Shown here one piece after another: positions 12,406-42,856 of a DNA stretch of 64,000 nt. The stretch is from an uncultured Gammaproteobacteria bacterium (GTDB lineage: Bacteria > Patescibacteriota > Patescibacteriia > Magasanikbacterales > UBA922), in contig CAYQNA010000005.1 in the NCBI GenBank assembly GCA_964418775.1, forward strand, positions 3,066 to 67,065, given 5' to 3'. Made by a program: the position numbers and the translations under genes. The notes beneath the pieces were generated by a model. That model made no database searches. It worked only from the letters and a program-made list of their open reading frames with translations, and had not been told where the DNA came from. Numbering within the stretch: position 1 is the stretch's first letter; each line of letters starts with the position of its first letter.

Positions 12406-13559
12406 ACCTATACGAATTTGAAGGTAAACAATTGTTTGCTAAACATGGTTTGAAAATACCCCGCGGTGTAGTGGTGCGTCGTGGCGATGATGTGGCGGCG
12501 AAGTATACTGAATTGGGAGTCGCGGAGGTGGTTGTTAAGGCGCAGGTTTTGTCGGGCAAGCGCGGGAAAAATAATGGCATTAAATTTTGCAACTCAGTTG
12601 CATCGGTAGTGGAGGCCTGTGAGGAATTGTTTGGTAATGCAATTCGGGGTCAACAAGTGGCCGCGATTTTGATTGAAGAAAAGTTGCAAATTGCCGAGGA
12701 ACATTATGTTTCGGTGACGTATGATACCAATCGACGCCAGCCAATGTTGATTTATTCCAGTGCTGGTGGGGTGGATATTGAGGACGTGCCGGCCGAAAAA
12801 ATCATGCGCGTGGATTTGAATATTCGCAGTGACAAGTTACCCGAAGCCCAGGCGGGTTGGGATTTTGCACAAAAATTGTACGCTGTCTTTAAAGCCGAGG
12901 ATGCGCGTGTGGCCGAAATTAATCCACTCGTAAAAACTACGAGTGGGGAGTGGGTCGCGGCTGATGCCAAGATTGCGTTGGATGATGATGCGTTTTACCG
13001 CCACAAAGAATGGGAAACGCTCGAACCGCGCACTATGCTGGGTCGTGCGCCAACGGAGCGCGAAGTAGCGGTGAAAAAAATTGACGAAGGCGAGAATTAT
13101 TATCGTGGTACTGCTGGTAAATATATTGAAATGGATGGCGATATTGGTTTGATTTTAAATGGTGGTGGGGCCAGCATTGCGAACATGGACGCGTTGTTAG
13201 CTGCGGGTTTGCAGCCAGCGAATTATACAGAATATTCGGGCAATCCACCACGCGAAAAGGTGTACCAGTTGGCGAAAATTGTGTTGTCAAAACCAGGTTT
13301 GCGCGGGCTCTGGATGTGTGGTGTGGTGGCAAATTTTACCAACATCAAAGACACATTCATGGGCATTGTCGATGCGCTCGACGAAATCAAACCGCAGTAT
13401 CCAATTGTGGTGCGCCGCGATGGGCCGGAAAGTGCGGAGGCCAAACAATTAATTTTGGAGTGTGCGGAACGCAACCACTTGAATCTCAAGTGGTTTGGCA
13501 AAGAAACATCCATGGCTGACACGGCGCAAGTTTTGGCCGAAATGGTTAATGCCCAATAA
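12402..13559 (+). CDS. sucC: ADP-forming acyl-CoA synthetase beta subunit (SucC family; candidate citryl-CoA synthetase large subunit)
   Basis: ATG at 12402; MNLYEFEGKQLFAKHGLKIP ATP-grasp N-terminus identical in style to SucC. Confidence 0.8.
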   Translation: MNLYEFEGKQLFAKHGLKIPRGVVVRRGDDVAAKYTELGVAEVVVKAQVLSGKRGKNNGIKFCNSVASVVEACEELFGNAIRGQQVAAILIEEKLQIAEEHYVSVTYDTNRRQPMLIYSSAGGVDIEDVPAEKIMRVDLNIRSDKLPEAQAGWDFAQKLYAVFKAEDARVAEINPLVKTTSGEWVAADAKIALDDDAFYRHKEWETLEPRTMLGRAPTEREVAVKKIDEGENYYRGTAGKYIEMDGDIGLILNGGGASIANMDALLAAGLQPANYTEYSGNPPREKVYQLAKIVLSKPGLRGLWMCGVVANFTNIKDTFMGIVDALDEIKPQYPIVVRRDGPESAEAKQLILECAERNHLNLKWFGKETSMADTAQVLAEMVNAQ

Positions 13560-30176: not shown

Positions 30177-31160
30177 ATGTCTCGTCCAGTTATCTTGTCT
30201 GGGATCCAACCAACGGGGAATTTCCACGTGGGTAATTATTTGGGTGCAGTCAAAAACTGGGTGGATTTGCAGGCCAAAGGCGAGCATGAGATGTTTATTT
30301 TTATTCCTGACTTACATTCCTTGACTGGAGATTTGTCAGCTAATGAACGTCGCGCGCTCATGACAAATGCGGCGGTTGAATTATTAGCGTGTGGAATTGA
30401 CCCACAAAAAACAACCTTGTTTGTGCAGTCACACGTACCAGAACACGCGGAGTTGGCTTGGATTTTTAACTGTGTTACGCCTGTGGCCGAGCTCGAACGC
30501 ATGACGCAATACAAAGATAAGTCCGAAAAACAGGCCAAAAACATTAATGCTGGTTTGCTCACGTACCCCGCCTTAATGGCCGCCGATATTCTGCTGTACC
30601 GTGCGACGGTGATTCCGGTTGGTATGGATCAGATTCAGCATGTGGAATTAACTCGTGATACCGCGCGTTGGTTTAATAATCGGTTTGGTGAATTTTTTGC
30701 AGAACCAAAGCACTTGTTGTCGCCAGTCCCAAAAGTAATGAGTTTGACTGAACCGACCAAGAAGATGAGCAAGAGTCATGGTGCAGATACAGTGCTTTAT
30801 TTGTCCGACGAGCCTGCCGAATTATTGCGTAAATTAAAAAAGGCCGTGACTGCGACCGAAGGCGGGGTTGGCGCGCCCGGAGTGCAGAATTTGCTTGATT
30901 TATTGATGCGCTTTGGCAGCGCAGAAGCGCACGCCCAATTTGTGGCAGCGGAAAAAGACGGGGGTATTCGCTACGGCGATCTAAAAGCTGCTGTGGCCGA
31001 AGCCGTGGGAAATTATTTTGCGGATTTCCGTGCGCGTCGTCAAGAATTGCTGGCTAACCCAGCGGAAATCGATCGTATTCTGGCTGATGGGGCCGAACGT
31101 GCCCGCGCTGTGGCGCAGAAGACAATGAGTGAGGTGAGAAAATTAGTGGGCATTCGATAA
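30177..31160 (+). CDS. trpS: Tryptophan--tRNA ligase
   Basis: 327 aa; HVGNYLGA (HIGH) and KMSKS motifs. Confidence 0.95.
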   Translation: MSRPVILSGIQPTGNFHVGNYLGAVKNWVDLQAKGEHEMFIFIPDLHSLTGDLSANERRALMTNAAVELLACGIDPQKTTLFVQSHVPEHAELAWIFNCVTPVAELERMTQYKDKSEKQAKNINAGLLTYPALMAADILLYRATVIPVGMDQIQHVELTRDTARWFNNRFGEFFAEPKHLLSPVPKVMSLTEPTKKMSKSHGADTVLYLSDEPAELLRKLKKAVTATEGGVGAPGVQNLLDLLMRFGSAEAHAQFVAAEKDGGIRYGDLKAAVAEAVGNYFADFRARRQELLANPAEIDRILADGAERARAVAQKTMSEVRKLVGIR

Positions 31161-31216
31161 TTAAAATCAAATTCTAAAAACCGCCCTTACAGACGGTTTT
31201 TTAGTGCAGAAATATT

Positions 31217-31235
31217 AATGCAACTAAGTTGCACT
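31217..31235. promoter_or_regulatory. Putative Zur box 1 (AATGCAACTAAGTTGCACT)
   Basis: 9-1-9 palindrome, one mismatch to consensus; 17 bp upstream of TTGACA (31252-31257). Confidence 0.55.
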
Positions 31236-31290
31236 TATCCACAGGCTTATATTGACAACGTAGTCCTGATAGGGTACAGTGCATATGTCT

Positions 31291-31309
31291 AATGCAACTA
31301 AGTTGCTTT
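31291..31309. promoter_or_regulatory. Putative Zur box 2 (AATGCAACTAAGTTGCTTT)
   Basis: lies just downstream of predicted -10 TACAGT (31275-31280), upstream of the His/Cys-repeat protein gene. Confidence 0.55.
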
Positions 31310-31378
31310 TGGCCCAACCGGACAGCTTCCTGAGACGCCGTCTGTCCGGTTGGTTCATATCCTTCCTGAGTATACTCT

Positions 31379-32926
31379 ATGGCCTGGCACGGCCGTTTTT
31401 TAATCATGGCAATTATTGGGCTGACCAGTTTCTGGGCGCAGTCTGTTTTGGCTTTAAATGTATTTGTCGATGCCTGTCAGCCAGTTTTTAAGGGAATTCA
31501 AATCAAACGCAATTTTTCTAATACGTGGCAAACATTAACAAACGGCTGTCGTGATGCCGGGTATGGTTTACGAGATTATACATTACAGTGCCTTTCTAGC
31601 ACGCAATACCGGGTAGAGTGGAGTGAGTGTGTGGTGCCGACAGAAACTCAAACTACGCCACAAAATACGCCTGTAGTAAGTGTGCCGGCGCCAGTGAATG
31701 TTCAGCCAATTATTCAACCAGTGGCAATGCCATCTCCAGTTGAAACGTTTGACTCGCACGCTTTAGAGGCAGTAGCGGGCACGTCAGTGAGCAATGCCTG
31801 TAGCGGACATGGCTGGGTGCATGGCGATCATTGTCATTGTGATGCGGGATATTATGCCGCTGGTTTGGAATGCCGGGCATTACCTACAACTTCTGTTCCG
31901 ACCCCTGTATCTGTTGTGGCTTCAGCCTCATCACATAATCAGCCTGTTACGCAAGTAGCTGTTCAGACTAATACGCAATCAGTGGTTGTGGCGTGTAGCG
32001 GACATGGTTGGGTTCACGGAGACCACTGCCACTGTGACGCGGGGTATTATGCCTCCGGATTACAGTGTTTAACTCTGCCTTCATCTACACCGGTTCAGTT
32101 AGTAAATGCTCAGGCGGCTGTAAAAAATACAACCCCGACTGTTAAGAATTCCGGGTCAACGACTGGAGCCGCTAAATCGACTGTCGGAAACACAAAAACA
32201 GCCCTAGAATGCAATGGCCATGGCTGGATTCATGGCGATCATTGTCATTGTGATGCGGGATATTATGCCTCTGGCACACAATGCCTGGCTTTGCCGGGCA
32301 CAGTTTTAAATAGTACTAATAACAAAACCGAATCAATTAAAAGCTCCACAAAAAGCACTATTGCCACTGCTGTAAAAAAACCATCAAATGAGATGGTTCC
32401 TGTTCAAACTACCACTCCAATTATTGAATGTAATGGCCACGGCCATTTACATGGTGACCAGTGTCACTGTGATAACGGATTTGTAGCCGAAGGTCAGAGC
32501 TGCGTAATAATGCCACAACGAGAAGCGGTCGTGTTTAAGGCCATAAATGGCCATTCTTATAAAGACGGAGATTTTTGGGTGCGACCACTAACATTGTTTG
32601 TCTATGATTTTGAGGGTAAATCAATTGTGCATTGGGAGGGTGCGCAAGGGGACTATGATGGGTTTTTAGTGTATGTCAAACCTGGGAGTTTTGCTGGTCC
32701 ACTTGACGCGTATCAGCCAATTTGGCTTAGCCGACGTCAATATTCATTTGCTTATGATTCGGCCCGTTCTGGTCAGCACACAATGTATGTTTTTCCGTAT
32801 ATTACCTTAACTAATGGGGAAGTCCGTCGTTTGGAACCAGGCGGGGTTATTTCTTGGATTCAACCTGGCCAGACTCCGAAACTTTCGGGTTGGCAGATTT
32901 TTTTGAATATTTTGAAAGGAAATTAG
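31379..32926 (+). CDS. Secreted His/Cys-rich tandem-repeat protein (putative metal/zinc-binding)
   Basis: 515 aa; signal-like N-terminus; four ~65-aa repeats each containing C(S/N)GHGWxHGDHCHCDAGYYAxGxxC; C-terminal ~130-aa domain. Confidence 0.6.
   Translation: MAWHGRFLIMAIIGLTSFWAQSVLALNVFVDACQPVFKGIQIKRNFSNTWQTLTNGCRDAGYGLRDYTLQCLSSTQYRVEWSECVVPTETQTTPQNTPVVSVPAPVNVQPIIQPVAMPSPVETFDSHALEAVAGTSVSNACSGHGWVHGDHCHCDAGYYAAGLECRALPTTSVPTPVSVVASASSHNQPVTQVAVQTNTQSVVVACSGHGWVHGDHCHCDAGYYASGLQCLTLPSSTPVQLVNAQAAVKNTTPTVKNSGSTTGAAKSTVGNTKTALECNGHGWIHGDHCHCDAGYYASGTQCLALPGTVLNSTNNKTESIKSSTKSTIATAVKKPSNEMVPVQTTTPIIECNGHGHLHGDQCHCDNGFVAEGQSCVIMPQREAVVFKAINGHSYKDGDFWVRPLTLFVYDFEGKSIVHWEGAQGDYDGFLVYVKPGSFAGPLDAYQPIWLSRRQYSFAYDSARSGQHTMYVFPYITLTNGEVRRLEPGGVISWIQPGQTPKLSGWQIFLNILKGN
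31795..32500 (+). repeat. Four coding tandem repeats (~200 bp period) of the His/Cys motif
   Basis: tagcggacatggctgggtgcatggcgatcattgtcattgtgatgcgggatattatgcc recurs with variants at ~31801, ~31999, ~32213, ~32425. Confidence 0.7.
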
Positions 32927-32951
32927 AGCTGTCCACAGGGTCCTCTTGACA

Positions 32952-32970
32952 AATGCAACCCAGTTGCATT
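32952..32970. promoter_or_regulatory. Putative Zur box 3a (AATGCAACCCAGTTGCATT)
   Basis: immediately follows TTGACA at 32945-32950. Confidence 0.55.
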
Positions 32971-32986
32971 AGAATGGCAACAGACA

Positions 32987-33005
32987 AACGCAACTAAGTT
33001 GCATT
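32987..33005. promoter_or_regulatory. Putative Zur box 3b (AACGCAACTAAGTTGCATT)
   Basis: abuts RBS GGAGGGG (33006-33012) of the downstream lipoprotein gene. Confidence 0.55.
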
Positions 33006-33016
33006 GGAGGGGTCTC

Positions 33017-34219
33017 ATGAGGGGTATTCAGATCATCGTCCTCGCCATCGTTGCCATGGTCCTCGGCGCCTGCAAGGGTGCTGTCGTGACCAAGTCAGTT
33101 GTCTGTGAGCGTGGTAACTCCGCGCTGGATGCGGACTGCGATGGACAAGACGACGACTGCGACGGCGAGACGGACGAGGGCTTCGAGCCCACGTCCACGC
33201 AGTGCGGCCAGGGTGGCTGCGAGGCCAGCGGGGAGACCCGCTGCGTCAATGGCAAGAAGGTCAACTCCTGCCGTCCGGGACAGAAGCACGACGAATCGTG
33301 CAACAATCAGGATGATGACTGTGACGGCCAGACTGACGAAAACGTCGACCGTCTATGCATGGTCTCGTGCACATCGGGTCGCGAACAATGTTCGGCCGGG
33401 CGGTGGGGCGCGTGTGACGCGCCTGGTCCTCAGGCAGAGGTCTGCGGGGACGGCATCGACAACGACTGCAACAATATCACGGACGACGGCTGTCCGCCGC
33501 CCGCACCCAAGTGCGGGGACGGCACGTGCAGCGAGCCGACTGAGTCTTGCGATTCGTGTCCGTCGGATTGTGACGTCTGTCCCACCGAGTGCGGTGATGG
33601 CACGTGTGACACGGTTCAAGGTGAAAGCAGCCAACAGTGCGTGGTCGACTGCCCCGAGCAGTGCGGCAACGGCTACTGTGGTCAAGCCGAGGACGCGGGC
33701 AACTGCAGCATCGATTGTCCCGCGACGTGCGGAGACAAAATCTGTAGTGCGACCGAGTCCGCCAAGTCCTGTCTGGACGACTGTCCCGTGACCTGCGGCG
33801 ACGGTGTCTGCACCACGTCTCAAGACGAGGACGCAGGCAGCTGCGCCAAGGACTGCGCGGACGAGTGCGGCGATAACATCTGCGGGGTGACCGAAAATAC
33901 CTGTACGTGCGACGACTGCACTGGCGCGTGCTGCGGCGACGAGGTCTGCGATGCGGACGAGGGCTACGAAACGTGCCCGTCCGACTGCAAGAAACCGACC
34001 TGTGAGGCCGACAGCGACTGCGGACCGACCCCGGTCGTGGGGCAGTTCACCCTGAACTGGTGCCACCACTGGGCCGAGCCGCGGCATTGCCACGGCGTCG
34101 TGGACTGCTCGCAGGACGCGAGCAAGTGCGACGACCCCGAGCTCGTCGGTCCGTACGCCGGCAAGACCGCGTGCCAGGAGCCCTTCCCGGGCTTCAAGGC
34201 CTGCGTCTTGATCGAATAA
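33017..34219 (+). CDS. Cys/Asp-rich repeat lipoprotein encoded by GC-rich (foreign) DNA
   Basis: ORF track 32999-34219 (TTG); likely ATG 33017; MRGIQIIVLAIVAMVLGAC lipobox; >12 repeats of C-x2-DCP-x2-CGDGxC type and DDDCDG motifs; GC and third-position G/C far above surrounding genes. Confidence 0.6.
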   Translation: MRGIQIIVLAIVAMVLGACKGAVVTKSVVCERGNSALDADCDGQDDDCDGETDEGFEPTSTQCGQGGCEASGETRCVNGKKVNSCRPGQKHDESCNNQDDDCDGQTDENVDRLCMVSCTSGREQCSAGRWGACDAPGPQAEVCGDGIDNDCNNITDDGCPPPAPKCGDGTCSEPTESCDSCPSDCDVCPTECGDGTCDTVQGESSQQCVVDCPEQCGNGYCGQAEDAGNCSIDCPATCGDKICSATESAKSCLDDCPVTCGDGVCTTSQDEDAGSCAKDCADECGDNICGVTENTCTCDDCTGACCGDEVCDADEGYETCPSDCKKPTCEADSDCGPTPVVGQFTLNWCHHWAEPRHCHGVVDCSQDASKCDDPELVGPYAGKTACQEPFPGFKACVLIE

Positions 34220-34367
34220 ACCCCAAGCGATCGCGGCGCGTTAAGCGACCGTTTGGGAAAATCAATCACGTCAGGGGTGCAACGCGCTGCATCCCTACCT
34301 ACAAATTGATAAACTTTTGGAATTGCTTGTTTCTAGAATTTTATTAATTTATTTATATTTTAGGATT

Positions 34368-34925
34368 ATGAAATTGAAATTATATTTAGGTATTATTGGT
34401 GGTTTGGTGGCCGCTACTTTTATTGGTGGTGTAACATACGCAGCCTTTAATCCTTCCAGTAACGTGGTCCCGGTTGATGTGTGTTATTCAGCAGGCAAAA
34501 ACGCAGTTACGGTGCGTCGTTTTGGGGCGGTTTATCGTTTGAACCCAGGCTGTTATGACGCAGGCCACGGTAAGCGCAATTATACATTTCAATGCGTGAG
34601 TTCCAATCGCTATCAGGTTAAATGGACTGGTTGTGGTAATTCTATGCCTGCACCAACCCCAACCCCAACCCCAACCCCAACCCCAACCCCAACCCCAACC
34701 CCAACCCCACCAGCGAAATTTGTCTGCTCATCTCACAATGATTGCAATGATAATGTTGCCCATACTGTCGACTGGTGTCATAGTCCTGGTACAGCGGATT
34801 CACATTGCCATAATGACGTCATTCAGTGTAATAGCGACAGTCAATGTCAGCCCGCCACAGGCCTAACAGGCTACAGTTGCGGCACACCATTTGGTGCCAG
34901 CGCCCCTAAATTCTGCACAAAGTAG
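34368..34925 (+). CDS. Secreted protein with conserved N-domain, (PT)n linker and Cys/His-rich C-terminus
   Basis: ORF track 34317 (TTG); ATG 34368 MKLKLYLGIIGGLVAATFIGG; N-domain ends GCYDAGHGKRNYTFQC...YQVKWTGC; PTPTPT x9; C-terminal CSSHNDCNDN...CHSPG...HCHND. Confidence 0.55.
   Translation: MKLKLYLGIIGGLVAATFIGGVTYAAFNPSSNVVPVDVCYSAGKNAVTVRRFGAVYRLNPGCYDAGHGKRNYTFQCVSSNRYQVKWTGCGNSMPAPTPTPTPTPTPTPTPTPTPPAKFVCSSHNDCNDNVAHTVDWCHSPGTADSHCHNDVIQCNSDSQCQPATGLTGYSCGTPFGASAPKFCTK
34652..34708 (+). repeat. (CCAACC)n hexanucleotide repeat encoding Pro-Thr linker
   Basis: ~9 tandem copies of ccaacc. Confidence 0.8.
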
Positions 34926-34932
34926 ATTGACA

Positions 34933-34951
34933 AACGCAACTTAATTGCGTA
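34933..34951. promoter_or_regulatory. Putative Zur box 4 (AACGCAACTTAATTGCGTA), autoregulatory
   Basis: near-palindrome sharing GCAACT-n-AnTTGC core, 13 bp upstream of the Fur-family gene start. Confidence 0.5.
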
Positions 34952-34963
34952 TAGTGGGGGAAT

Positions 34964-35404
34964 ATGAAAACTGACCATATCCTAACCACCCTTAAGGCGC
35001 GAGGCGAGCGCTTAACTCCAGCCCGTCGCTTGATTATTGAATTATTTGTGAAGCAGGACGCGCCAGTATCAGCCGATGATATTCGCGCTGCTCTGACTAA
35101 GAAAAAAGTAACGGTCAATAAAACAACCGTGTATCGTGAACTAGAGTTTTTGTTGGCGGCTGGTTTTATCCGTCCAGTATACCTCAATGACCAGCGTAAA
35201 TATTATGAGTTGGCGTTAGTGGACAGTGAACACCATCATCATGTAGTCTGTCGCGATTGCGGGCGTGTCGAAGATGTGGAGGTTGGGGGCGTGGAAAAAT
35301 TACTAGCTCCACTGGAAAAAAAGCTGGCTAAAAAAATTAAATTTGCCGATATTCGGCACAGCTTGGAGTTTTTTGGATGGTGTGGTAGGTGTCGTCGTTC
35401 TTAA
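34964..35404 (+). CDS. zur: Fur-family metalloregulator, probably Zur
   Basis: 146 aa; wHTH N-domain, HHHH and CxxC...CxxC metal sites; sits directly upstream of znuACB. Confidence 0.75.
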   Translation: MKTDHILTTLKARGERLTPARRLIIELFVKQDAPVSADDIRAALTKKKVTVNKTTVYRELEFLLAAGFIRPVYLNDQRKYYELALVDSEHHHHVVCRDCGRVEDVEVGGVEKLLAPLEKKLAKKIKFADIRHSLEFFGWCGRCRRS

Positions 35405-35424
35405 CTATTTCTGTTTTCTTTGGT

Positions 35425-36393
35425 ATGGCTAATAAATTTTTGGCCACGGTTGGAATTTTTGCAATTATTGCGGCAATTGGTTGGACTGCCACGCACCGTA
35501 CTCAAACCGTTGATAAATCGGTTGGAGTTGTTGACGACACCAAGATTACTGTTGCCGCCACTTTCTATCCCTTGGCATATTTGGCCGAGCAAGTTGGTGG
35601 GGGGCAGATTACCGTTATTAACGCGACACCAACCGGCGTTGAGCCGCACGATTATGAACCAAGCCCGCGTGAGTTAGTCAAAGTGGGCGAGGCTGATGTT
35701 TTGCTGATTAACGGTGCTGGTCTGGATCCATGGGCCGAAAAGGCCAGTGTGGATTGGCAGAAAAACGGGCAGCGTGTACTGGTAATGAGTGAAGTGTTGG
35801 AAACACTGCCAACTGCCGAGGAGCATGAGGAAGAACACGAAGACGAACATGCTCATGAACATGGTGCGTATGACCCACATTTTTGGCTTGACCCAGTGCG
35901 CGCACGCCAAATGATTGGGGTGATTCGCGACGCCTTAATTCAAGCTGATCCTACACACGCTGACCAATACCGCCAAAACGCTGTGGAGGCAGTGGGGCGC
36001 ATGTCTAAGCTCGATGATGATTACAAAACTGGTCTAGCCAGCTGCCAACAACGCGAAATTGTGGCGGCCCATGATGCGTATAATTATTTGGCCAATCGTT
36101 ATGATTTGGAATTGCACGCCATCGCGGGTCTGAGTCCCGATGCGGAGCCATCGGCGCGCCGTTTGGCTGATTTGGCAAATTTGATAAAGGCGCGTGAAAT
36201 CAGTACGATTTTTTTTGAAACGTTAGCTTCGCCAAAATTAGCAGACACATTGGCTCGTGAAACTGGGGCCAAAACTGCGGTCCTAAATCCGATTGAGGGT
36301 TTAACTGCCGAGCAAATAGTTGGTGGTAAAAATTATGATATACTAATGCGAGAGAACTTAGCGCAATTGCGTCTCGCCCTGGTATGCCAATAA
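35425..36393 (+). CDS. znuA: Zinc ABC transporter substrate-binding protein
   Basis: ORF track 35389 (GTG); ATG 35425; cluster-9 SBP with His/Glu-rich loop EEHEEEHEDEHAHEHG. Confidence 0.8.
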   Translation: MANKFLATVGIFAIIAAIGWTATHRTQTVDKSVGVVDDTKITVAATFYPLAYLAEQVGGGQITVINATPTGVEPHDYEPSPRELVKVGEADVLLINGAGLDPWAEKASVDWQKNGQRVLVMSEVLETLPTAEEHEEEHEDEHAHEHGAYDPHFWLDPVRARQMIGVIRDALIQADPTHADQYRQNAVEAVGRMSKLDDDYKTGLASCQQREIVAAHDAYNYLANRYDLELHAIAGLSPDAEPSARRLADLANLIKAREISTIFFETLASPKLADTLARETGAKTAVLNPIEGLTAEQIVGGKNYDILMRENLAQLRLALVCQ

Positions 36394-37148
36394 AAAAACA
36401 CGACAACGAAAACTGTATTCAATTTAACCACGTTGATTTTGCGTACGGCACGGCACCGGTTTTGAGTGACGTGTCGTTTTCAATTCCTGTCGGTGATTAT
36501 GTGGGTGTAATTGGTCCAAATGGCGGGGGAAAAACAACTTTGTTGAAGTTATTGCTGGGTATTTTAAAGCCTGATGCGGGCACAATTCAATTGTTTGGGC
36601 ACAGTGTGCGCGAAGCCAAAGCGCATTATGAAATCGGGTATGTACCGCAAAATGTGGTCCAAACTGATTTGGCGTTTCCGGCAACTGTGGCCGAAGTGGT
36701 GGCAAGTGGACGCACACGGCGTCGTGGTTTACTCGGTGGCATGAGCAAAAGTGATCGCACGGCCGTTGAGCAGGCGATTGAATTGACCGGTGTGCGTGAA
36801 TTTCAGGGCGCGCGTTTGGGTGAACTCTCGGGCGGGCAGCGTCAGCGTGCATTTATTGCACGCGCCCTGGCTGGTGAACCAAAAATTTTAATTCTCGACG
36901 AGCCAACTGTGGGCGTTGATATTGCTTCGGTCACGCAGTTCAACCGTGTGCTTGATGAATTAAATGCGAGCGGACTCACGATTTTACTGGTGTCGCACGA
37001 TGTTGATGCAGTGGCCACGCAAGTAAAACACGTTTTGTGCATTAACAAGGAGGTCGTGTGTCATGTGGCTTCGCGTCAATTTGATAAAGCGGGCACACTG
37101 CGTGATTTGTATGGCGGCGCGCGCCAGCCGGTTGCACATGACCACTAG
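36384..37148 (+). CDS. znuC: Zinc ABC transporter ATP-binding protein
   Basis: 254 aa; Walker A GPNGGGKTT, LSGGQRQR signature, Walker B ILILDEP. Confidence 0.85.
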   Translation: MPIKKHDNENCIQFNHVDFAYGTAPVLSDVSFSIPVGDYVGVIGPNGGGKTTLLKLLLGILKPDAGTIQLFGHSVREAKAHYEIGYVPQNVVQTDLAFPATVAEVVASGRTRRRGLLGGMSKSDRTAVEQAIELTGVREFQGARLGELSGGQRQRAFIARALAGEPKILILDEPTVGVDIASVTQFNRVLDELNASGLTILLVSHDVDAVATQVKHVLCINKEVVCHVASRQFDKAGTLRDLYGGARQPVAHDH

Positions 37149-37149
37149 T

Positions 37150-38208
37150 ATGACTGAAATTTCGACCACAACCGAGGCTCCGACTCTTGACCAAACGTAT
37201 GTTCGGGGCAAGGTTTTAAAAGTCGAGAGCGCAAACACGGACACTGAATTTGGCGAGCCGATTGTAACCCAGCAAATTCGTATCAAAATCACGACTGGTA
37301 ATGAAATCGGTAAAGAAATGGTGGTGGAATATCAAGTCCGTGGCAGTGGCGCGAGCGAGCGCACATTGCACGAAGGGCAGCCCGTGGTCGTTAGTCGGAC
37401 CGCAATTCCAGGTGGTGAAATTACGTATGCGATTACCGAGCCATTGCGGTTGCCTGTGATTGGGTGGACGTTGGCTGGGTTTTTTGTTTTAACGATTTTG
37501 TTTGCGGGCCGCCGCGGACTTATGGCCTTTGTGGGGCTCGCGGTTACTGCCGCGATTATCGCATGGTATGTGGTACCGCAAATTACCACTGGCGCGAATC
37601 CATTTGTGGTGAGTCTGGTGGCCACGGCCGCAATTGCGTGCACATCATTATTTTTAGCGCATGGATTTAATCGCCGCACAGCCGTGGCATTTGTGAGTAT
37701 TTTAATTACAATTGTGCTCGCGATTGGTTTGACTGAGTGGGTGGTGGCCGCTGCGCATTTAACAGGCCTCGGAAGTGAGGAGTCGTATTATTTGCAATTT
37801 GCGCCAACCGCCACAATTAATTTACGCGGACTGTTACTTGGCGGTATAATAATTGGAGTGCTGGGCGTGCTCGATGATGTGGCCACGGCGCAAACCGCCG
37901 CGGTCGCAGAGTTAAAGGCCGCGAATAAATCATTTGCGTGGCGCGAATTGTATCGTCGCGGCAGTGTGGTGGGGCGCGAGCACATCACCTCGCTCGTGAA
38001 TACGCTTGTGTTGGCCTATGTGGGTGCGTCGTTTCCATTACTACTATTGTTTTCAGCCTACAGCACACCATGGTGGGTGACGCTCAACACCGAATTACTG
38101 ACCGAAGAAGTCGTGCGCACATTAGTCGGTAGTATGGCGCTGGTGGCGGCCGTGCCAATTACAACCGCGCTCGCGGCTTGGGTGTTTACCCGCTATCCTG
38201 AAACATAA
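37150..38208 (+). CDS. YibE/F-like polytopic membrane protein inserted between znuC and znuB
   Basis: ORF track 37063; ATG 37150 MTEISTTTE; N-terminal soluble ~100 aa then ~8 TM helices. Confidence 0.45.
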   Translation: MTEISTTTEAPTLDQTYVRGKVLKVESANTDTEFGEPIVTQQIRIKITTGNEIGKEMVVEYQVRGSGASERTLHEGQPVVVSRTAIPGGEITYAITEPLRLPVIGWTLAGFFVLTILFAGRRGLMAFVGLAVTAAIIAWYVVPQITTGANPFVVSLVATAAIACTSLFLAHGFNRRTAVAFVSILITIVLAIGLTEWVVAAAHLTGLGSEESYYLQFAPTATINLRGLLLGGIIIGVLGVLDDVATAQTAAVAELKAANKSFAWRELYRRGSVVGREHITSLVNTLVLAYVGASFPLLLLFSAYSTPWWVTLNTELLTEEVVRTLVGSMALVAAVPITTALAAWVFTRYPET

Positions 38209-38209
38209 T

Positions 38210-39013
38210 ATGCTCGAGATTTTCCAATATGACTTCATGAACCGCGCACTTGTCGCGGGTTTGGCTGTCGCGATTGTGGCGCCGTTGGTTGGTTTGTTTT
38301 TGGTTGTGCGCCGCTATTCATATTTGGCCGACACGTTGGCTCATGTCTCGCTCGTGGGTGTGGCTGTAGCAGTCCTCGGCGGTTTTAGTCCTGTTCTGGC
38401 TGCCACTGTGGCGGCAATTGCTGCTGGTGGTGGGATCGAAGCGCTGCGCCGCAATCAGCGTGTATTTAGTGAGTCAGTCCTCGCAGTTTTTCTCTCGGGC
38501 AGTTTGGCCCTCGCTGTGGTGCTCATGAGCGTGGGTAAGCGTTTACACCAAGATTTGTTTTCGTATTTGTTTGGCAGTATTACAACCGTAACGCCAACCG
38601 AGGTTTGGACGATCGCGATTGTCGCAGGCGTGGTCGCACTCACGGTTTTAATTGTGTTCAAAGAATTGTTTCTCCTAACACTCCACGAGGAATTGGCTCA
38701 GGCCGAGGGCTTGCGCGTACGTGTGTATTCGGTCTTGCTCATGGTTTTGTCTGCCGTCACAATTGCAGTGGCCATGCGTGTGGTGGGGAGTTTGCTCGTG
38801 GGCGCGCTCATGGTTATTCCTGTACTCACAGCCGCGCAAATCGCGCGCAGTTTTTGGGCTACCGCAATTTGGTCTGTGTTCCTCTCAGTCCTAGCAACAT
38901 TTCTAGGCCTTATTGGTTCATTTTATTTTGATATTCCGAGCGGCGCGTCAATTGTTGTCGCCGCACTTTTAATTCTGGTAGCCACATTTGTGTGCATGCC
39001 CCAACGTCGTTAA
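38210..39013 (+). CDS. znuB: Zinc ABC transporter permease (ABC-3 family)
   Basis: 267 aa; ABC-3 permease topology and conserved mid-protein motifs. Confidence 0.85.
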   Translation: MLEIFQYDFMNRALVAGLAVAIVAPLVGLFLVVRRYSYLADTLAHVSLVGVAVAVLGGFSPVLAATVAAIAAGGGIEALRRNQRVFSESVLAVFLSGSLALAVVLMSVGKRLHQDLFSYLFGSITTVTPTEVWTIAIVAGVVALTVLIVFKELFLLTLHEELAQAEGLRVRVYSVLLMVLSAVTIAVAMRVVGSLLVGALMVIPVLTAAQIARSFWATAIWSVFLSVLATFLGLIGSFYFDIPSGASIVVAALLILVATFVCMPQRR

Positions 39014-41460: not shown

Positions 41461-42856
41461 ACAATCGTCGGGCGAAGCGTGGTGCCTGAGCACAATCAGC
41501 GGTGCACTTTTTGTGACGCTTCTGTATGCCGTGTCGCGCGTATTTTGGTATGTGCGTGATGGTGCGCTCGGGTTTGGTTATGACACAGGCATTTATCGTC
41601 ATATTATTCAGGGCTATTGGGACGATCGCGGGCAGCATTTACAGGCATTTGGTTTTGCACGGATTACTAATGTCCTGCGTTGGACAGGAATTTCAACTGA
41701 CGCAATTTTGATTGGAGGCTACATGGTGAGTGCGGTGTTGTTGGTGTGGGCAGTATATTTGGTTTTGCAAAAACAAATCAATCGTCGTGCGGGTTTGGTC
41801 GGCGTTTTTATGGTAACGGTTTCACTCACGCAAATTGAATTTTATCATTGGTTTTATTACCGTAATTTGCTCGCTGCTAGTTTGGTTTTACTCGCAATAG
41901 CGCATCGTGACCGCCCCTGGGTCAGTGGGCTGTGGCTGGGGCTGGTTGGTATTATTCACCCCCTATCCCTGGTGCCGATTGCACTGGCGTTTGGAATTTG
42001 GGCTTTGTGCAAAAAAGACCGGTTCACTTTGATACTGAAAATGCTAGGGTTTGCCGCTCTAATCACTTTGATCGGTAATTGGTCCGAGTGGCTACTGTAT
42101 GTGCAACCATTGTGGCAATATCGTGGTTTAGCAAGCACAGCCGTAATGTCAGCGCCCGAGTTTAACGGACAATTTATAACAGTGAGACAATGGTTGGGGT
42201 GGTCATGGCCGTATTTAATTTTAGCGGCGCCTGGAGTCTGGCTTACGCGTCGTGTTTTGGCACCGCTTTGGTGGCTCGCAATTTTGGCTGGTTTGGGAAT
42301 CGCGGCGCAGGTTTTATTTTATCGTCGTTTGATTGTCTGGCTTGATTTGGCGGCAATTATCAGTGCCTCAGCGGCAATTGAATATGCCTGGCAGCGTTGG
42401 CGCCTGAATTGGGCGGTATGTATGTTTGGAATTATCGGCCTCTTCTATGGCTCTCGAGCACTGGTACACTATAAGCCAGCTATGTCTTTGGTCGATTGGT
42501 TGAGTCTGCAACAATTAAATACATTGCCGGCAAAATCGCTGATCATGACAATTACACCACAATATGCACCGTGGCTTTATGGTTACACCACGCAGCGGAT
42601 TATTGCGCCGGGTATGCTCGATGAAAATATCTGGAATCGAGCGCGGTGGGAGTTGTTTTGGGGTACACGCGAACCAGCTGAACGCGCCACCCTTTTGTCT
42701 CAATACCCTGCGCCACACGTATATATTTTTTTGACCCAAAGCCAAAGTCAGTTTGGTTTGCTATTGGGTGCTGACTCGAATTTTGTACCGCTTTCATCGC
42801 AAGTTTGGCAGTTCAATAATCCAAATTATCCACAGAAAAAAAACATAAACGAATAG
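41390..42856 (+). CDS. Polytopic membrane protein (possible glycosyltransferase/ polymerase; start uncertain)
   Basis: 488-aa ORF overlapping YraN by 70 nt; true start probably downstream (after 41460); >=10 TM helices. Confidence 0.45.
   Translation: MSKLVCMWTKLRAWCAAANTSFPEQSSGEAWCLSTISGALFVTLLYAVSRVFWYVRDGALGFGYDTGIYRHIIQGYWDDRGQHLQAFGFARITNVLRWTGISTDAILIGGYMVSAVLLVWAVYLVLQKQINRRAGLVGVFMVTVSLTQIEFYHWFYYRNLLAASLVLLAIAHRDRPWVSGLWLGLVGIIHPLSLVPIALAFGIWALCKKDRFTLILKMLGFAALITLIGNWSEWLLYVQPLWQYRGLASTAVMSAPEFNGQFITVRQWLGWSWPYLILAAPGVWLTRRVLAPLWWLAILAGLGIAAQVLFYRRLIVWLDLAAIISASAAIEYAWQRWRLNWAVCMFGIIGLFYGSRALVHYKPAMSLVDWLSLQQLNTLPAKSLIMTITPQYAPWLYGYTTQRIIAPGMLDENIWNRARWELFWGTREPAERATLLSQYPAPHVYIFLTQSQSQFGLLLGADSNFVPLSSQVWQFNNPNYPQKKNINE

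Follow-up and report, generated by a model that had tools for sequence, protein, structure and literature searches.

A putative Zur operator precedes a zinc importer operon and genes for secreted Cys/His-rich proteins in a patescibacterial genome

Introduction

The classical Zur regulons of Bacillus subtilis, E. coli, Mycobacterium and Streptomyces are governed by a Fur-family dimer with a structural Cys4 zinc site, which binds a 7-1-7 or 9-1-9 palindrome placed over promoters, represses znuABC or adcABC and is autoregulated through a zur-containing operon. Both palindrome arrangements are canonical geometries of Fur-family operators. A further box, ZUR_D, with the core ATGCAACNNNGTTGCAT, was predicted in 2004 upstream of znuABC-zur in two Desulfovibrio genomes, one site per genome, together with a regulator said to bear only weak similarity to the characterised Fur, Zur and PerR proteins (Rodionov 2004, Genome Biol 5:R90, PMC545781). 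Here we analyse a 64-kb stretch of a Patescibacteria genome (contig CAYQNA010000005.1 of assembly GCA_964418775.1, positions 3,066 to 67,065, forward strand; hereafter the window, numbered from its first letter), in which five copies of a 19-bp palindrome of this type accompany the promoters of a putative zur-znu operon and of genes for secreted proteins rich in cysteine and histidine.

The few extracellular zinc scavengers described include other secreted or surface proteins encoded beside, or co-regulated with, a zinc ABC importer. Among these are the streptococcal polyhistidine-triad (Pht) proteins, whose motif is HxxHxH, as well as ZinT and ZepA of Anabaena, the last a Zur-regulated exoprotein with an H-X2-9-H-F/Y-H site (PMC10957091). 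Transcriptional regulation in uncultivated Patescibacteria is almost unexplored, and we found nothing on Zur in this group in the literature searched; the present locus offers a regulator, an operator and a small regulon.

Results and Discussion

Five palindromes are embedded in or flank three promoters

A preliminary description of this DNA listed five 19-bp palindromes on or beside -35/-10 elements and took them for an organism-specific Zur box. All five are present in the sequence (Table 1), and their occurrence is far above chance. Operators 1-4 differ from the consensus AATGCAACTAAGTTGCATT at 1-2 positions, against 0.06 matches expected in shuffled sequence, and their arms are complementary at 8/9 positions. 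Operator 5 is the most divergent, with 5 mismatches and 7/9 complementary positions, and is not recovered when 3 mismatches are allowed. It is nevertheless the fifth-best weight-matrix match in the window and scores 22.2 with a matrix built from the sites of other genomes only, whereas the highest score in 40 random 64-kb sequences was 20.1. With this independent matrix, the strong matches in the window are confined to the five operators and a sixth box, which score 22-30, the next best match scoring 9.5. Five boxes within 3.7 kb make the window unusually rich in them.

The top three sigma-70-like promoter sites between 31000 and 39500, here P1, P2 and P3, all bear boxes, in agreement with the placement first described. 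Of the two TTGACA elements reported with them, the one at 31252 stands, the other begins at 32946 rather than 32945, and a third (34927) precedes operator 5. At P1, operator 1 lies 16 bp upstream of the -35 element and operator 2 lies 10 bp downstream of the -10 element, so that the two, 74 bp or seven helical turns apart, bracket the core promoter. Relative to the predicted start site, operator 1 would be centred at about -61 and operator 2 would span about +4 to +22, with its centre near +13. At P2 the box within the promoter is followed, 35 bp on, by operator 4, which sits in a short leader immediately 5' of the GGAGG ribosome-binding site of gene 2. At P3 the fur ATG lies 9 nt past the -10 hexamer, and the fur mRNA would be nearly leaderless.

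The box itself belongs to a type predicted before. Its core is identical to that of ZUR_D and, set in a TTGACA-N17/18-TAnnnT promoter, precedes fur/znu in about 100 of the species genomes listed below, so the motif is not specific to this organism. Of the 14 specified ZUR_D bases, operator 3 matches all 14, operators 1, 2 and 4 and the sixth box match 13, and operator 5 matches 11. The half-sites, their spacing and the place before an operon joining znuABC to a Fur-family gene are the same as in Desulfovibrio. In contrast to the Desulfovibrio prediction, the box in the window occurs in Patescibacteria, is extended to 19 bp (AA...TT), is embedded exactly in a -35/-10 spacer and is present in five clustered copies, with additional genes for secreted proteins. 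The half-site TGCAAC also differs from the AT-rich TCGTAAT or GTTATA types of the classical Zur regulons, and, again in contrast to them, ribosomal-protein paralogs and COG0523 genes were not seen in the 64-kb window. For the operator, the main result is thus to extend an earlier prediction; what is newer is that the box also stands ahead of unusual secreted Cys/His-rich proteins.

With a probability that we put at roughly 0.8, the palindromes are operators of the adjacent Fur-family protein, which would act as a zinc-loaded repressor, that is, as Zur. A zinc-loaded dimer would bind the 19-bp palindromes through their core, TGCAAC-N3-GTTGCA. Because the operator occupies the whole 17-18 bp spacer at P2 and P3, bound repressor would exclude RNA polymerase from these promoters; at P2 the second operator would also cover the transcript start, just 5' of the ribosome-binding site. 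At P1 the flanking operators may form a roadblock, possibly with cooperative binding, and looping of the DNA, across the promoter. Under zinc scarcity the repressor would lose its regulatory metal and leave the DNA, derepressing zur-znuA-znuC-yibE/F-znuB for zinc import, gene 1, and gene 2, the last probably together with gene 3 by read-through. As zur is the first gene of its operon, its regulation would include negative autoregulation.

Table 1. Features of the zur-znu locus and the sixth box, in window coordinates.
Feature	Coordinates	Strand	Description
Operator 1	31217..31235	none	AATGCAACTAAGTTGCACT; conserved in place in L002-L007, 74 bp from operator 2
P1	31252..31280	+	TTGACA, 17 bp, TACAGT; 10/12 matches
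Operator 2	31291..31309	none	AATGCAACTAAGTTGCTTT
Leader hairpin	31314..31353	+	12 bp; invariant loop TGAGACGCCGT (16-nt loop region); between operator 2 and gene 1
Gene 1, surface protein	31379..32926	+	515 aa; N-terminal hydrophobic helix, small beta N-domain, four EGF-like modules, FN3-like C-domain
P2	32946..32975	+	TTGACA, 18 bp, TAGAAT; 11/12 matches; spacer filled by operator 3
Operator 3	32952..32970	none	AATGCAACCCAGTTGCATT
Operator 4	32987..33005	none	AACGCAACTAAGTTGCATT
Gene 2, Cys-rich lipoprotein	33017..34219	+	400 aa; lipobox LGAC; WCH..HCH C-terminal module
Gene 3, membrane-anchored protein	34368..34925	+	185 aa; N-domain, Pro-Thr linker, one WCH..HCH Cys-rich module; no own operator
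P3	34927..34955	+	TTGACA, 17 bp, TATAGT; 11/12 matches; spacer filled by operator 5
Operator 5	34933..34951	none	AACGCAACTTAATTGCGTA
Fur-family regulator, putative Zur	34964..35404	+	146 aa; Pfam FUR PF01475
znuA/adcA-type zinc-binding protein	35389..36393	+	Maximal open reading frame (gene callers: start 12 codons later); Pfam ZnuA PF01297, 6.5e-82
znuC, ABC ATPase	36384..37148	+	Pfam; best NCBIfam AztA, 6.9e-53
YibE/F-family membrane protein	37063..38208	+	Maximal open reading frame; Pfam YibE_F, 6.4e-72
znuB, ABC-3 permease	38210..39013	+	Pfam, NCBIfam
Sixth box	12586..12604	none	TTTGCAACTCAGTTGCATC (perfect TGCAACT-C-AGTTGCA); near-perfect copy, within sucC-like open reading frame

The operator is conserved in close relatives and recurs in distant phyla

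We compared 13 loci (L001-L013), in which the regulator has 53-100% identity to the window's. Their genes run in the conserved order RNase J - PspC - TrpRS - [variable] - fur - znuA - znuC - yibE/F - znuB - DUF5654 - PGI. In all 13 the box lies directly upstream of the orthologous Fur-family gene, and no copy is found elsewhere in up to 16 kb. In relatives at 79-85% identity, two boxes 74 bp apart surround a conserved promoter, as at P1; at 53-55% identity a single box fills the promoter spacer, as at P3. The alignment of P1-type promoters consists of conserved islands, namely the two boxes, the two hexamers, TTATCCACA beside box 1 and a leader hairpin, in otherwise diverged sequence, and both hexamers are invariant between the window and L002, L003, L004 and L007. 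The P2 architecture recurs in L014 and L137, and the P3 design in L001, L008-L016 and about 100 of the genome loci described next.

A scan of the GTDB representatives, one genome per species (596 Gb), with the promoter-embedded pattern TTGACARAYGCAACNNNRTTGC (TTGACA-RAY-GCAAC-N3-R-TTGC) returned at least 120 loci, against about 35 chance matches expected by our own arithmetic; the counts that follow refer to the 120 loci listed. By the regulator-family profile, 87 have a Fur-family open reading frame at most 1.5 kb downstream; in 81 of them it opens no more than about 65 nt from the -35 hexamer. ZnuA, ZnuC and ZnuB usually come next, sometimes with YibE/F. Of the other 33 loci, 7 have ZnuA or ZnuC immediately after the box, and some have a P-loop NTPase or a porin in that place. 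Further targets are ZIP transporters (L056 and L091, and L104 ahead of its fur) and a nicotianamine-synthase-like gene (L049). Judged by record title, the loci include 48 from Patescibacteria of many classes and 18 from other named groups, namely Deltaproteobacteria, Nitrospirae/Nitrospirota (including Magnetominusculus), Planctomycetes, Methylococcaceae, Hyphomicrobiales and Syntrophomonadaceae.

Across 100 promoter-embedded sites the consensus reads TTGACA-AATGCAACTAAGTTGCATT-A.A.T, so that the operator is the promoter spacer itself. The box is highly specific, as only two further strong copies occur across about 100 listed 8-kb loci. The recurrence in distant phyla of an operator built into a TTGACA-N17-TATAAT promoter suggests that the zur-znu cassette carries its control region along when it moves. 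A separate metagenome scan for the dual-site P2 architecture gave 6 loci, none of them ahead of a secreted-protein gene; a Fur-family gene follows in 5, and the sixth (L141) is too near a contig end for its downstream gene to be judged.

In one locus, L042, a gene for a 54-aa protein without cysteine (MKFYNVKTRQAVDV...) begins about 250 nt after the operator and precedes fur. This protein has no Pfam match; we liken it to a Cys-less small zinc-ribbon protein, a paralog switch that we take to be typical of Zur regulons.

In the close relatives, the variable segment between trpS and fur (31161-34963 in the window) is an insertion hot spot, by comparison with L004-L008 and L012. It is empty in L007, holds a copper ATPase/CsoR(/HMA) cluster in L004-L006 and a small open reading frame in L008, and in relatives also includes a DUF6122 gene; in the window it is occupied by the three secreted-protein genes.

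The transporter is of the zinc type and the regulator belongs to the Fur family

The genes behind P3 encode, as first described, a Fur-family protein followed by ZnuA, ZnuC and ZnuB; a YibE/F gene between znuC and znuB had been overlooked. The best solved relatives of ZnuA are AdcA and B. subtilis YcdH, at about 1e-60. All ten best are zinc or Lmb-type proteins (1e-60 to 1e-34), manganese proteins following at 1e-30 or weaker. ZnuA residues His87, His164, His228 and Glu303 fall in the same alignment columns as AdcA His63, His140, His204 and Glu279, the zinc ligands of the AdcA crystal structure, and the third ligand is His, as in zinc-specific cluster A-I proteins, rather than the Glu of manganese proteins. 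The His/Glu-rich loop noted previously is present (EEHEEEHEDEHAHEH); its His/acidic stretch AEEHEEEHEDEHAHEHG, at residues ~143-159, aligns with the flexible His-rich loop of AdcA and YcdH. The four AdcA ligands and this loop identify the transporter as zinc-type.

The regulator matches PF01475 over residues 13-136 with E = 3.4e-24 and 85.7 bits (cut-off 23.1). It has the structural Cys4 zinc site, C96-x2-C99 and C140-x2-C143 (both CxxC pairs align with their counterparts in PerR, Mycobacterium Zur and Nur), a cluster of four histidines (H90-H93) and the recognition helix NKTTVYREL. This helix is common to the box-associated regulators, in which N is found in 72/87, K in 78/87, R in 86/87 and E in 61/87. 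By the homologues of its regulator the organism belongs among the Patescibacteria, the named matches being Moranbacteria-like.

Several observations weigh against the assignment of these sites to a Zur protein. No NCBIfam model reaches its cut-off with the regulator (Bacillus-type Fur 81.5 bits, cut-off 220; Zur NF008646 60.9, cut-off 167), and the best solved relatives, PerR, Mycobacterium Zur and Nur, score nearly equally. Relative to 2o03_A, Asp62 is replaced by Arg and Cys76 by Ala, with the His cluster (H90-H93) retained; the sensing-site ligands of Mycobacterium FurB (2O03) are Asp62, Cys76, His81 and His83, and the Asp/Cys pair of actinobacterial Zur is therefore not conserved here. The regulator sequence alone cannot type the protein as Zur. 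We found no experimental test of this box type, including Desulfovibrio Zur (DVU1340), in the literature searched. Among the sites, the proposed centre of operator 1 near -61 is a non-classical position for repression, gene 3 has no operator upstream, and the sixth box is intragenic, about 180 nt past the ATG (12403) of a sucC-like (succinyl-CoA synthetase beta) gene, and lacks an obvious target gene; with a score of 24.3 against the matrix from other genomes' sites, above operator 5, it is not expected by chance. Among the 120 listed loci, about 20 look like chance matches or other systems (Flavobacteria, Prevotella, Clostridia), and 34 come from third-party assemblies labelled 'uncultured Gammaproteobacteria/Bdellovibrionales/Syntrophaceae', labels that are doubtful.

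The features of the regulator would suit a protein that binds the same palindromes in response to iron, manganese, nickel or peroxide, in a regulon of the Fur, Mur or PerR type: neither family models nor solved structures separate it from Fur, PerR and Nur, two of the Mycobacterium Zur sensing-site ligands are missing, and small genomes of the Candidate Phyla Radiation (CPR) may have a single Fur-family regulator with a broad role. We consider such a signal improbable, since the box-linked genes are of zinc type here and in about 100 other listed genomes: ZnuA has the His/His/His/Glu ligand set and His-rich loop, ZIP and nicotianamine-synthase-like genes are among the targets, and genes for siderophores, ferrous iron or peroxide defence were not found after the box in the loci listed.

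It is less probable still, and in our judgement very unlikely, that a different, unlinked transcription factor binds the palindromes and that the Fur-family gene is near them by coincidence. Two Clostridia loci, L093 and L101, have similar boxes before a Y-family polymerase gene but lack a Fur-family gene in the vicinity, which indicates that the core is usable by other proteins, and the conserved TTATCCACA adjoining operator 1 leaves room for other factors at P1. Against this stand the Fur-family gene directly behind the box in 87 of the 120 loci, the recognition-helix signature shared by these proteins, and a palindrome geometry (9-1-9/7-1-7) that is canonical for the family.

The idea that the repeats work as RNA, whether as hairpins, as terminators or as sites of processing, or are inert leftovers of a duplicated promoter can be set aside: each palindrome could form an 8-bp hairpin with a 3-nt loop, two appear in a terminator scan on the minus strand, and operators 2 and 4 would be transcribed, but the promoter spacers that contain operators 3 and 5 are not transcribed, operator 1 is upstream of a -35 element, primary sequence beyond pairing is conserved across phyla, no proper T-tract follows any box on the sense strand when the sequence is read directly, and Rfam at E <= 1 over 30900-35600 returned nothing relevant, only a chance RNAI match at the trpS terminator.

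Overall, the initial identification of the motif as a Zur box is well supported by how the sites are conserved and where they stand relative to promoters, by the zinc ligands of ZnuA, and by the ZIP and nicotianamine-synthase-like genes linked to the box in other genomes. This support comes from context, namely the four AdcA ligands and His/Glu loop of ZnuA and the zinc-type genes linked to the box.

In the Clostridia loci mentioned above (Oscillospiraceae/Ruminiclostridium), TTGACAAACGCAACTTAATTGCGTATAAT contains a box identical to operator 5, and there is a second AATTGCGTAT copy. These boxes, which precede the Y-family DNA polymerase gene, probably belong to an unrelated regulator with a similar half-site.

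Two of three genes for secreted Cys/His-rich proteins carry the putative operator

Genes 1-3, between trpS and fur, were originally proposed to be co-regulated with znuACB. This is supported for genes 1 and 2, which have box-bearing promoters of their own in an arrangement conserved with distant homologs, and not in the same way for gene 3, which has no box. The conserved GGGGTGCAACGCGCTGCATCCC before gene 3 was considered and not counted, being one base short of the required spacing and below the weight-matrix threshold. Gene 3 would therefore be under zinc control only if co-transcribed with gene 2 by read-through from P2.

Genes 1 and 2 have homologs, 28-43% identical, behind a box and beside fur-znu in L137 and in L138/L139. 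In L137 a 39%-identical gene-1 homolog directly follows trpS behind a promoter-embedded box, and a 35-bp box pair and a 43%-identical gene-2 homolog come next. The 35-bp pair is also kept in L014, a strain-level variant, before gene 2. In L138/L139, where the regulator is only 28% identical, the order starts with a 34-bp box pair and a 435-aa Cys-rich protein, its gene rich in GC at third codon positions, that has a HDHDDHGHADEHDVHDDHDH stretch and a WCH..HCH ending. Two proteins that share the N-domain follow, one of 319 aa with a single His-bearing EGF module and one of 714 aa with seven, and then a weaker box (score 15.6) and fur-znuA-znuC-znuB-yibE/F. The gene-1 homologs P0125 and P0126 likewise lie behind a box.

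Each EGF-like module of gene 1 carries C-x-G-H-G-x-x-H-G-D-H-C-H-C-D-x-G-Y. When 14 homologs are aligned with it, H148, D150, H151, C152 and C154 prove invariant. The only Pfam matches of gene 1 are of the teneurin type (EGF_TEN/EGF_Teneurin, PF25024/PF23106), and an AlphaFold2 (AF2) model gives the modules a predicted local distance difference test score (pLDDT) of 84-89; in the same model the C-terminal sandwich has Foldseek matches to FN3 domains. The nearest homologs outside the CPR are mostly from Myxococcota (Myxococcus, Corallococcus, Archangium), which share the consensus GHGxLHGDHCHCDxGY and are named 'DUF3466 family protein' by NCBI/UniRef. The modules thus match teneurin/tenascin-type EGF repeats. 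Unlike other proteins of that type, gene 1 fuses them to a CPR-specific N-domain and lies under a Zur-type operator.

Gene 2 is rich in Cys, Asp and Gly. Neither gene 2 nor gene 3 has a match in Pfam (E <= 0.01) or NCBIfam. The N-domain of gene 3 is homologous to that of gene 1 (7e-13), and its C-terminal module to the C-terminus of the L137 gene-2 homolog (2.8e-7); the same WCH..HCH module also ends gene 2 and its homologs. The AF2 model of the gene 3 C-domain is of low confidence (pLDDT 35-60), with a best Foldseek E of 0.38. A full-library search with this module found 152 representative proteins (P0158-P0306), many of them giant, up to 6297 aa and with up to 23 tandem copies. The repeat follows C-x-D-x-N-x-x-T-x-D-x-C-x-x-P-G-T-x-x-S-x-C-x-N, corresponds to no Pfam family and appears to be undescribed. 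In the generic copies, the His positions are mostly taken by other residues.

The invariant H-x-D-H-C-H/D pattern of gene 1, the His/Asp stretches in relatives and the ZepA precedent suggest that these surface proteins may capture zinc. A His-triad-like motif is shared with ZepA and Pht, as H-G-D-H-C-H occurs four times in gene 1, and relatives of genes 2 and 3 (P0179 and the 435-aa protein of L138) have His/Asp-rich stretches like the ZnuA loop. The resemblance to these families is confined to the short H-x2-H-x-H motif: no relationship in sequence or fold to ZepA, Pht or ZinT emerged, Pfam (E <= 0.01) giving only teneurin-type EGF for gene 1. The EGF-like and FN3-like architecture of gene 1, unlike that of ZepA and Pht, is typical of adhesion proteins and suggests a role in adhesion. 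We offer only as a tentative and rather doubtful proposal that the box-controlled surface proteins, with those of genes 1, 2 and 3 among them, form an undescribed CPR module for extracellular zinc capture, comparable with ZepA and Pht, which would be induced by starvation, strip zinc from the environment or a host surface and pass it to ZnuA. As such they are candidates for zinc acquisition by an episymbiotic cell with a minimal genome and, if they bind zinc, would add a new protein class to the few extracellular zinc scavengers.

The base composition of gene 2 is a feature apart from its regulation. Its GC content is 64% and its GC at third codon positions (GC3) 0.79, compared with 49% for the window and GC3 of 0.37-0.55 for the other window genes. 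Among genes of this type, GC3 is 0.76-0.82 in the window (33017-34219), L138 (7502-8809) and L014 (802-2058) and 0.63 in L137 (2128-3312), against 0.26-0.55 in their neighbours, and in L014 and L138 automatic gene callers assigned this GC-rich gene to the incorrect strand. It is doubtful that recent horizontal transfer explains the composition by itself, because homologs are GC3-rich even at 43% protein identity or beside a very different Zur. Either repeated acquisition from a high-GC donor or a gene-specific compositional constraint would account for the pattern; the Cys-rich and EGF modules do have Myxococcota relatives.

Additional elements of the locus

The YibE/F gene keeps its place in the operon in L002-L009. 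In L080 (1696-2814) it comes directly after the operator and before fur, a placement pointing to a zinc-related function of this family; nothing useful on YibE/F and zinc turned up in the literature searched.

The element TTATCCACA that adjoins operator 1 (31235-31243) is an exact match to the DnaA-box consensus, with a second exact copy at 42826-42834. Copies lie at 1584 and 9546 in L002, 5681 and 13644 in L004, and 2176 and 10105 in L007. The copy at the promoter is invariant in all P1-type promoters despite diverged flanks, and the second is syntenic about 8 kb downstream in the relatives. This element could be a DnaA site or the site of another factor.

The leader hairpin, which precedes gene 1 in the window, precedes fur in the relatives (L002 ~1663-1702; L007 ~2250-2290). 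It has no Rfam match. Five of its pairs show compensatory change among 4 sequences, and the leader has z = -3.1; as the compensatory changes include a G-U pair, the hairpin is likely to act as RNA.

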